This document shows positions 34,666-36,123 of a DNA stretch of 64,000 nucleotides, in pieces (the first letter of the stretch is position 1; each line of letters opens with the position of its first letter). A program made the position numbers and the translations under genes. The notes under the pieces are model-generated. The model saw nothing but the letters and a program-made list of their open reading frames with translations. It did not search any database and was not told the DNA's origin. Origin of the DNA: Escherichia coli (GTDB taxonomy: Bacteria > Pseudomonadota > Gammaproteobacteria > Enterobacterales > Enterobacteriaceae); assembly GCF_048403405.1 (NCBI RefSeq), contig NZ_CP183129.1; one strand, given 5' to 3'.

Positions 34666-36123
34666 CTATTTTTTAGCATTCGCATCCAGCGGGGCGGCAT
34701 AACAGCTGTAAGAAAAACATTCGCTGGAATGATTGGCGATATCTTTAAAGTTGCTTTCAGCAACCCCCTCGAACATGAGTACCGTTCTGGACAACTCTCC
34801 GTTTTCATTTATATATGGAAAATCAAATTGTGTACTGAATCGCCATACATCTGTCTTTTCTGGCTCGCTGTTCACAGAGATACGTCGATGGAAGACTCCT
34901 CCTGAAAACGTGCGCCAGAACAATTGTTGATCAAAATCTTGTAATATCGCACACTTGGATGCTATTTGACGTAGTAAACCTGCATACCGTGGACTGCCAT
35001 TACGAGCAACATTATACAAACCCTGACTAAAAGCATCAAACAAACAATAGATATGATCACTAGTGAAAAAAGGTCTTAATTTTTTTTGTTCTTCATCGCT
35101 GTAATCCAGGAGCATCTCATTGATTTCTTCCGGTGAGAATTTTAAGACAAAATTATCCTCAGGATTTGTTTCTTTCTTGTTTTTTTCACTATTCTTCTCC
35201 TCAATGGTCTTCGCATTTTGTTTCGCAATTTTTTTCGCATTTTCTTCCTCAGTTTTTTTCGCAATTTTTTCCGCAATTTTTTCCCGAGTTTTTGGTTTTA
35301 GACTAACACCATCGATGTCAACCGGTGTTGTTTTCAGATCTCTCTGCGCGTCTTTCAAATTTGTCTTATAGAGATCGGGCACTTTATCGGCAGATAAGTA
35401 TCCGGATGAAGAAATCTGGTGTGTACGCATGGGGGGCTGTTCACAAAGCATCGAGGCTATATCGTCTTTAAACTCTTTTACATTAAAGTTATCGGCATTA
35501 ACCTTCCCTGTTATAAACCCCGCATCGGCAATTTTCTTCTCTAATTGTTTTGTACGTTTAGAATAATAAGCGTTGTTATCATAAAACTTTTCAAGAAGGG
35601 CCCACTCCTCAAGTTGCCTTATGTGATTTTTCAACTGTTGATGATCTATTTTATATTCATGTGTACTAGAATCATTTTGGTTGCAGGGGTTACAGATTTT
35701 TAAGCATAATTTTCCATCATAATTATTATCTATGGTATCAGTGAAAATATAGGACACTTCAATACTCTGCCCGTTCTTATCAGTCATCTCATATGACCAT
35801 TGCCCCGTTCGTTTCGCATTCTTAATGAGTTCGATGGACTCTGCAGGACAACCATGAAGAATGGGCAGAATTTTATCAGGATGCTTAATGAGTAAAATTA
35901 TTATATTTACAATGTTTGAAAAGAAATCTTTGCTATTTTTTATTTCATCGATTTTTTCCGCTGAAATGTTTACTAAGTTTTCATTTCCGGAAATGAAAAG
36001 CAATTTGCCATGGGGGCTTTTTTTAAATTGTTCTTCTGTTTTAGAAAAGACATCCTCTTTAAAAGGTGGCAACTCACTACCAGTAATAAACGGTTTCAAT
36101 AAATTCGAATTTGAAATTGTCAT
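34666..36123 (-). CDS. Hypothetical protein (485 aa), AT-rich orphan gene inserted between acpH and malZ; function unknown
   Basis: ATG at 36123 behind GGAG; no signal peptide; N-terminus MTISNSNLLKPFITGSELPPF (Ser/Asn/Thr/Ile-rich, no acidic residues in the first 15 aa); central Lys/Glu/Ala-rich repetitive segment (KIAEKIAKKTEEENAKKIAKQNAKTIEEKNSEKNKKE); visibly AT-rich; acpH and malZ are adjacent in K-12 as I recall. Confidence 0.75.
   Translation of the reverse strand: MTISNSNLLKPFITGSELPPFKEDVFSKTEEQFKKSPHGKLLFISGNENLVNISAEKIDEIKNSKDFFSNIVNIIILLIKHPDKILPILHGCPAESIELIKNAKRTGQWSYEMTDKNGQSIEVSYIFTDTIDNNYDGKLCLKICNPCNQNDSSTHEYKIDHQQLKNHIRQLEEWALLEKFYDNNAYYSKRTKQLEKKIADAGFITGKVNADNFNVKEFKDDIASMLCEQPPMRTHQISSSGYLSADKVPDLYKTNLKDAQRDLKTTPVDIDGVSLKPKTREKIAEKIAKKTEEENAKKIAKQNAKTIEEKNSEKNKKETNPEDNFVLKFSPEEINEMLLDYSDEEQKKLRPFFTSDHIYCLFDAFSQGLYNVARNGSPRYAGLLRQIASKCAILQDFDQQLFWRTFSGGVFHRRISVNSEPEKTDVWRFSTQFDFPYINENGELSRTVLMFEGVAESNFKDIANHSSECFSYSCYAAPLDANAKK

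Follow-up and report, generated by a model that had tools for sequence, protein, structure and literature searches.

A 12-nt coding tandem repeat of variable copy number in an orphan gene between acpH and malZ of Escherichia coli

The orphan gene and its repeat array

The window analysed here is a stretch of 64,000 nt from the chromosome of Escherichia coli (NCBI RefSeq assembly GCF_048403405.1, contig NZ_CP183129.1), and the subject of this report is a short tandem repeat inside an orphan gene that is flanked by two convergent core genes, acpH and malZ. The gene order in this part of the window is secD-yajC-tgt-queA-acpH, followed by an AT-rich accessory island of 1,663 nt (34646-36308) and then by malZ-proY-brnQ. 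The GC content is 0.32-0.42 across the island, as compared with ~0.53 in the flanks. In K-12 MG1655 the stop codons of acpH and malZ lie only 4 nt apart, and comparison of the junctions places the tetranucleotide AACG where 34646-36308 stands in the window. By megablast the island was found in 1,129 of 5,426 complete E. coli genomes (~21%, with ~79% being without the gene), and in all carriers the locus is single-copy, chromosomal and located at the acpH-malZ site. No hallmarks of mobile elements were seen at the two island junctions, no search aimed at such hallmarks having been made.

The island carries an open reading frame (ORF) of 485 aa on the minus strand (34666-36123), which was taken from the ORF list of the window and corresponds to ECs_0454 in O157:H7 Sakai. 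The gene is annotated as encoding a hypothetical protein in all fetched genomes. Its product can be divided into an N-terminal part of ~277 aa (residues 1-277), a repeat linker (residues 278-322) and a C-terminal part of ~163 aa (residues 323-485). The linker is encoded by a 12-nt coding minisatellite at 35170-35289, likewise on the minus strand, in which ten degenerate units, TREK and nine more, could be delineated from Tandem Repeats Finder (TRF) output, a separate repeat search, the register of the copies and their translation. Read on the coding strand from 35289 to 35170, the units are TREK, IAEK, IAKK, TEEE, NAKK, IAKQ, NAKT, IEEK, NSEK and NKKE. The coding-strand unit is approximately ATTGCGAAAAAA, which translates into the 4-residue repeat x-A-K/E-K, and the resulting linker consists of Glu, Lys and Arg to 53% and has a net charge of +4.

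The best-conserved core of the array was delimited by TRF at 35210-35282, with a period of 12 nt, 6.1 copies, 80% matches and the consensus TTCGCAATTTTT, and degenerate rows with periods of 24, 36 and 48 nt in the same output reach over 35179-35293. The repeat search returned 7 copies in the 12-nt register. Compared with itself at lags of 12, 24 and 36, the segment shows identities of 0.74, 0.76 and 0.74, respectively. In 5,000 shuffles that preserved composition, the highest identity over lags 4 to 36 averaged 0.47 and always stayed below 0.74. The head-to-tail tandem copies accordingly exceed chance, as is characteristic of a coding variable-number tandem repeat (VNTR). An initial annotation of the window had quoted a plus-strand repeat sequence at 35205-35290, described it as degenerate copies of a roughly 12-nt unit encoding KIAEK/KIAKK-type repeats, and pointed to runs of 7 T. 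The quoted sequence is present at that position, and both the unit and its coding were confirmed by TRF, register and translation.

Two T7 runs do lie within the span, at 35229-35235 and 35253-35259, the former corresponding to A7 in Lys codons on the coding strand, and they are accompanied there by T6 runs at 35265-35270 and 35277-35282. A further T7 run, at 35180-35186 (coding GAAAAAAACAAG), belongs to the degenerate 3' end of the array, and a +1 frameshift has arisen there in the O145 lineage. Downstream of the array, a T8 run at 35080-35087 codes for KKLR, and one genome and one protein fragment carry a -1 frameshift at this position. The longest runs in the orphan gene as a whole are one T8 and four T7.

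Variation of the array among strains

The variability of the array was assessed in three sets of homologues. Nineteen further copies of the locus were fetched, and 15 loci entered a multiple alignment; 120 protein clusters were drawn from a collection of 5.8 billion proteins; and a systematic sample of 60 out of 1,127 carriers provided a view of the population, for which the lengths of the coding sequence (CDS) were computed from the reported coordinates. The CDS of the fetched copies measures 1386, 1422, 1434, 1446, 1458, 1470 or 1518 nt, in addition to frameshifted copies of 1445 and 1471 nt. The array comprises 5 to 14 units among strains, and protein lengths lie between 469 and 505 aa, at intervals of 4. 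Across the 120 protein clusters and 19 nucleotide alleles, the segment between conserved anchors spans 34, 38, 42, 46, 50, 54 or 58 aa, with one allele of 505 aa and 14 units falling beyond these classes.

The alignment of the 15 loci locates the changes precisely. In the alleles that carry the array, every in-frame indel of the orphan gene falls inside it, and the indels found elsewhere in the gene are 1-nt homopolymer frameshifts. The indels inside the array measure 12, 24, 36 or 60 nt and leave the ORF intact in the alleles concerned, and since they affect several different registers they represent independent events. At the level of the unit string they appear as loss of IAEK, fusion of TEEE-NAKK to TEEK, gain of TAEI, and loss of IAKK-TEEE-NAKK, together with the unit duplications TRKK-TRKK (in locus copy L015) and TAEK-TAEK (in protein cluster P0097). 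Since the array changes only by complete 12-nt units, it never shifts the frame. The suggestion in the initial annotation that the segment might switch the reading frame is therefore not borne out, every change in 35205-35290 being a multiple of 12 nt.

Two pairs of alleles are particularly informative in this respect. The locus copies L007 and L008 differ by 12 nt in the array and by no single-nucleotide polymorphism (SNP) in the rest of the CDS, and the same holds for the window and L016, which are separated by 36 nt in the array and by 0 SNPs elsewhere in the CDS. Thus, the array changes faster than the gene gains substitutions, though too slowly for variation to appear within the O157:H7 clone. 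Near-perfect direct repeats, two copies of AAAAAATTGCGAAA, flank the 36-nt deletion in L016. The variation in length between strains that had been anticipated for this segment is hence directly visible among the homologues, up to and including otherwise identical alleles that differ only in the array.

In the sample of 60 carriers, a CDS of 1446 nt was present in 28 genomes, 1458 nt in 18, 1470 nt in 7 and 1422 nt in 2, and single genomes accounted for 1518, 1386 and 1471 nt, for a copy disrupted by the insertion sequence IS1 and for a truncated copy. The length was divisible by 3 in 57 of the 60. All 18 O157:H7-type genomes in the sample carry the 1446-nt form, and more generally the CDS length tracks the identity of the allele, 1470 nt being seen in one identity band in the same way as 1446 nt is seen in the O157:H7-type genomes.

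A divergent allele of 461 aa was encountered in strain JX21CE8 (L014, 167-1552) and also in strain 88COLEC (hit H99). Its linker, TRRHLADIIHVKCMREKNYTTDQGFELPEEVIH, is non-repetitive and 24 aa shorter, from which it follows that the sequence of the linker is not constrained. Either the array expanded from a sequence of this type or it was replaced there.

Single-nucleotide slips and other inactivation of the gene

The initial annotation had further proposed that the T tracts could undergo slipped-strand mispairing. For the tracts inside the array this did not hold, as the T6 and T7 runs within 35205-35290 show no +/-1 change in 19 nucleotide alleles and differ in length only by substitution, with the total remaining a multiple of 12 nt. 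Conversely, the proposal does apply to the adjacent T7 run at 35180-35186 and to the T8 run at 35080-35087. The former is a T8 run in the O145 strains FWSEC0002 and RM9872 (L013 and L018), in which the CDS is annotated as frameshifted. An 80-nt query across this T8 allele gave an exact match in 26 genomes, nearly all of them O145 or O145:H28 and originating from several laboratories. The O145 strain RM12275-C1 retains T7 and an intact CDS of 1470 nt in an otherwise identical gene. The T8 form goes back to a genuine slipped-strand event, but in the 26 O145-type genomes it looks like a lineage-fixed, inherited pseudogene, and the lone T7 in RM12275-C1 could be either the ancestral state or a revertant. 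As a result of the frameshift the orphan protein stops where the linker ends, and for copies that are frameshifted or fragmentary (P0123, P0125) gene callers predict a separate C-terminal ORF starting from M337.

At 35080-35087, a T7 run replaces T8 in L011, whose CDS is annotated as frameshifted; malZ is also frameshifted in the same assembly, and a sequencing or assembly error is a possible origin of this variant. The protein fragment P0137, which derives from a different allele, ends in EEQKN followed by a stop and shows the same shift as L011. Frameshifts at A6-A7 runs were likewise observed in the fragments P0128, P0130 and P0134, and three tract-length anomalies occur together in the fragment P0127.

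The gene has also been lost by larger events. IS1 is inserted at several positions in different strains, as in the hits H1 (NZ_CP028589.2) and H41 (NZ_CM143892.1), and the sequence GDAANLLI, with which the fragments P0121, P0125 and P0141 terminate, is taken to be read-through into the end of IS1. In one of these cases the element lies inside the repeat array itself, P0121 ending with KKTAEIIA directly followed by GDAANLLI. In O55:H7 USDA5905 (L019, 2501-2836) a deletion has removed all but the final 334 nt of the orphan gene, which there abut malZ without its C-terminus, and this constitutes a further independent inactivation of the locus. In combination, the A7/A8 slips beside the array look like occasional inactivating mutations, i.e. 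ordinary pseudogenisation, and not like programmed phase variation.

Selection on the orphan gene

An open frame of 485 codons has a chance probability of ~8 × 10⁻¹⁷ in DNA of 37% GC. Among the intact alleles, which differ by up to 7% and contain 204 segregating sites, the frame is open throughout, and 0 nonsense changes were observed against ~10.8 expected under neutrality. Judged by these statistics, the orphan ORF is a genuine coding gene. The ratio of nonsynonymous to synonymous changes is 145:59, as compared with a neutral expectation of 3.84:1, which corresponds to a ratio of nonsynonymous to synonymous polymorphism (pN/pS) of ~0.64 overall. The linker is about neutral, with 29:8 and a pN/pS of ~0.94, and the flanking parts show 72:33 and 44:18. 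Several pairwise ratios of nonsynonymous to synonymous substitution rates (dN/dS) are near or above 1. Such weak constraint on the amino-acid sequence is unusual for an intact E. coli gene and compatible with relaxed or diversifying selection.

Properties of the predicted protein

The term orphan, already applied to this gene in the initial annotation, proved appropriate. When 1.84 billion representatives were searched exhaustively with phmmer, nothing was recovered beyond the protein's own cluster and fragments with identities of at least 66%, and a scan of 100,044 species-representative genomes for conserved heptapeptides revealed no relative within the limits of heptapeptide seeds. Likewise, tblastn detected nothing in phages and only two mislabelled chromosomes among plasmids. 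In Pfam the best match (E-value 0.003) failed to reach the gathering score and covered low-complexity linker sequence, nothing was found in NCBIfam, and the best E-values in PADLOC (0.061), PHROG (0.006) and the PDB sequences (1.3) were not significant. All weak profile and sequence matches of the protein are limited to the low-complexity linker. A literature search on the locus tags of the orphan gene and on the acpH/malZ context found nothing relevant. As far as such searches reach, the protein is restricted to Escherichia/Shigella, with no detectable relatives outside.

Structure prediction with AlphaFold2 (AF2) from an alignment of 17 alleles gave a mean predicted local distance difference test (pLDDT) score of 40.8 for the full protein and 46.5 for the C-terminal part, values that are too poor for a fold search. 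A helix predicted at residues 277-304, that is, in the repeat, had a pLDDT of 63-77 and is among the few better-supported stretches of this poor model. No hydrophobic segment suggesting a membrane span was found in the protein. Of the 41 i,i+4 pairs in the linker, 8 are of opposite charge and 9 of the same charge.

Interpretation of the length variation

The segment is, in our judgement very probably, an in-frame coding minisatellite, the product of which is a Lys/Glu/Ala/Ile-rich and probably helical interdomain linker of variable length. What has been observed directly is the repeat with its coding register, and a polymorphism in copy number that is restricted to steps of 12 nt and is also seen between alleles without any other difference. 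Mechanistically, misalignment of neighbouring units would lead to gain or loss of whole units, either by slippage during replication or by unequal recombination, for which short direct repeats such as AAAAAATTGCGAAA would provide the substrate. A change of this kind would keep the frame and shift the length of the linker by 4 aa per unit, or ~6 Å if the linker is helical. We infer that either slippage or recombination is at work, that the linker serves as a helical spacer and that its length is tolerated or tuned, not essential. In this reading the locus is an ordinary coding repeat polymorphism and not a genetic on/off switch.

Several observations weigh against this interpretation. The comparison of genomes cannot separate slippage from recombination between alleles, and the array is only moderately unstable, as seen from its constancy in the 18 sampled O157:H7-type genomes. 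The picture of two domains joined by a helix is weak, being derived from poor AF2 models (mean pLDDT 41 and 46.5), and the Glu/Lys/Arg content of the linker lies below that of classical single helices of the ER/K type. Finally, the differences in length may represent neutral variation in a weakly constrained gene, as judged from the overall pN/pS, the IS1 insertions, the deletion and the frameshifts.

This last point can be extended to a reading in which the ORF is dispensable and drifting to loss, the A-rich stretch is mechanically prone to indels and the length of the linker has no functional meaning. The near-neutral pN/pS, above all in the linker, and pairwise dN/dS values often near or above 1 are in line with it, as are the IS1 elements at several sites, the large deletion in O55:H7 USDA5905, the frameshift fixed in O145, the absence of the gene from most E. 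coli genomes and the lack of homologues or known domains. However, a frame of this length has been kept open, against the odds of its arising by chance and without any of the expected nonsense changes, and indels other than multiples of 12 nt are very rare, which argues that truncation is selected against in most lineages. Drift of this kind would moreover employ the same mutational mechanism as the in-frame minisatellite and differ only on whether length matters, and we regard it as an unlikely account of the locus. Somewhat less likely still is a simple-sequence contingency locus, in which the T/A homopolymers in or beside the array would form a reversible, high-frequency slipped-strand on/off switch, i.e. 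phase variation. It could draw on the T8 at 35180-35186 in the 26 O145-type genomes, as opposed to T7 and an intact ORF in one otherwise identical O145 genome, on the T8-to-T7 change at 35080-35087 in both L011 and P0137, and on the A6-A7 frameshifts in three protein fragments. The tracts are just 6-8 nt long, however, as against ~9 nt or more for a typical hypermutable homopolymer; the four tracts in 35205-35290 are free of +/-1 changes and the array changes only in multiples of 12 nt; nearly all sampled carriers retain a length divisible by 3, with the O157:H7-type genomes uniform. The O145 state, found as 26 exact copies from many laboratories, looks inherited, and the one T7 genome is as compatible with ancestral retention as with reversion, while the frameshifted malZ of L011 suggests a homopolymer sequencing error.

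Errors of the latter kind also bear on whether the differences in copy number could be collapsed or expanded repeats, that is, artefacts of assembly or alignment. Some homopolymer differences are probably errors, as in L011 with its frameshifted malZ and in P0127 with its three anomalies, but the array, at ~120 nt, is far below the length of sequencing reads, many complete genomes obtained independently share the same length classes, which go with the identity of the allele, and the variants show distinct, interpretable orders of units. As a source of the length variation, an assembly artefact is thereby effectively refuted, and the probability that we would still assign to it is close to negligible. 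A bolder reading takes the product to be a fast-evolving conflict protein, such as a single-gene anti-phage defence, a host-interaction factor or a secreted factor, in which a helical ruler would keep the two parts apart. Diversifying selection would act on the length of this ruler, and the gene would now and then be turned on or off at the A7/A8 runs, as in O145. This reading is suggested by the overall pN/pS together with dN/dS values sometimes above 1, the retained frame, the patchy distribution, the position on an AT-rich island between core genes and the repeated inactivation, and we treat it as a long shot. If true, the 12-nt array would serve to tune the protein adaptively and would not be neutral low complexity.

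Relation to known repeat loci

The closest described case is tolA of E. coli, in which an in-frame tract of 15-nt units, belonging to the Lys/Ala/Glu-rich helical domain II, varies among strains (Zhou, Michiels and Aertsen 2012, PMC3477136). The tolA tract contracts at a frequency of ~7 × 10⁻⁵ in a RecA-dependent manner, and the number of units was found experimentally to affect stress tolerance (PMC3477136). Both loci consist of short degenerate in-frame units, of 12 and 15 nt, respectively, in an E. coli gene, with polymorphic copy number and a frame that is kept, and in both the product is a Lys/Glu/Ala-rich, helix-prone spacer between two protein parts, although for the orphan protein this spacer is a model-based prediction. 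They differ in that tolA is a core gene of established function, whereas the orphan gene is accessory. The unit of the orphan gene is also shorter, at 4 aa as opposed to 5, as is its array, at 5-14 units.

VNTR minisatellites of bacteria were reportedly reviewed by van Belkum et al. in 1998, and the generic E. coli loci designated CVN in multiple-locus VNTR analysis (MLVA) are VNTR loci used for typing. Like these, the orphan array is head-to-tail, polymorphic between strains and stable enough for inheritance within clones. Unlike them, it would make a poor marker, since it is present in only ~21% of genomes and invariant within O157:H7. No description of the locus as a typing marker was found in the literature.

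The simple-sequence contingency loci of Moxon et al. comprise phase-variable genes of Neisseria, Haemophilus and Campylobacter. The orphan gene resembles them in its coding A/T homopolymers, at which +/-1 slips shift the frame, and in one T7-to-T8 change that is fixed in a lineage. It departs from them in tracts that are 6-8 nt long, in an array unit that is a multiple of three, and in that most carriers keep the frame. Spacers built from an ER/K single alpha-helix (SAH) are said to have been described by Sivaramakrishnan et al. in 2008 and by Suveges et al. in 2009. The orphan linker is similar to these as a Glu/Lys-rich, predicted-helical segment between two parts, the length of which would set their spacing if the model holds, but it differs in its Glu/Lys/Arg content of 53% and in a 4-residue period that carries Ile and Ala.

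The locus thus adds, alongside tolA, a further natural case of an in-frame tract that alters the length of a protein linker in E. coli. It also presents an E. coli-specific gene, found in about one-fifth of strains (among them O157:H7 and, as a frameshifted pseudogene, O145), that is kept open yet fast-evolving. The practical value is small: some lineages might be told apart by the array, but O157:H7 shows no variation in it. A larger importance would follow only if a function of the orphan protein were found and turned out to depend on the length of the linker.

Other features of the island and its surroundings

A Shine-Dalgarno-like GGAG, read from the sequence, lies on the minus strand at 36131-36134, 7 nt upstream of the ATG of the orphan gene (36123-36121), and would presumably function as such. 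In a promoter scan, sigma-70-like sites were no commoner than in shuffled sequence, and none was found in the upstream region 36124-36230; Rfam gave no matches in 34000-36600.

Two plus-strand ORFs run antisense over the array, at 35120-35371 (83 aa) and 35133-35306 (57 aa). As both encode Phe-rich nonsense and are unannotated in all fetched genomes, they were rejected as genes and put down to the T-rich composition of the template strand.

Upstream of the orphan gene and still inside the island, a hairpin is found on the minus strand at 36230-36275, just 3' of the malZ stop codon. The RNA is predicted to fold with -31.5 kcal/mol (z = -5.7), 0 of 200 shuffles being equally stable, and the hairpin is probably a terminator of malZ or an insulator. 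The T-run in its loop (~36250-36254) varies among strains, occurring as T5, T6+G or T7+G.

A separate insertion was observed in O157:H7 Sakai (L021, 8258-8774), in which ECs_0461 and ECs_0462, annotated as a small transcriptional regulator and a plasmid stabilization system protein, lie between secF and yajD; this pair looks like an insertion of the toxin-antitoxin type.

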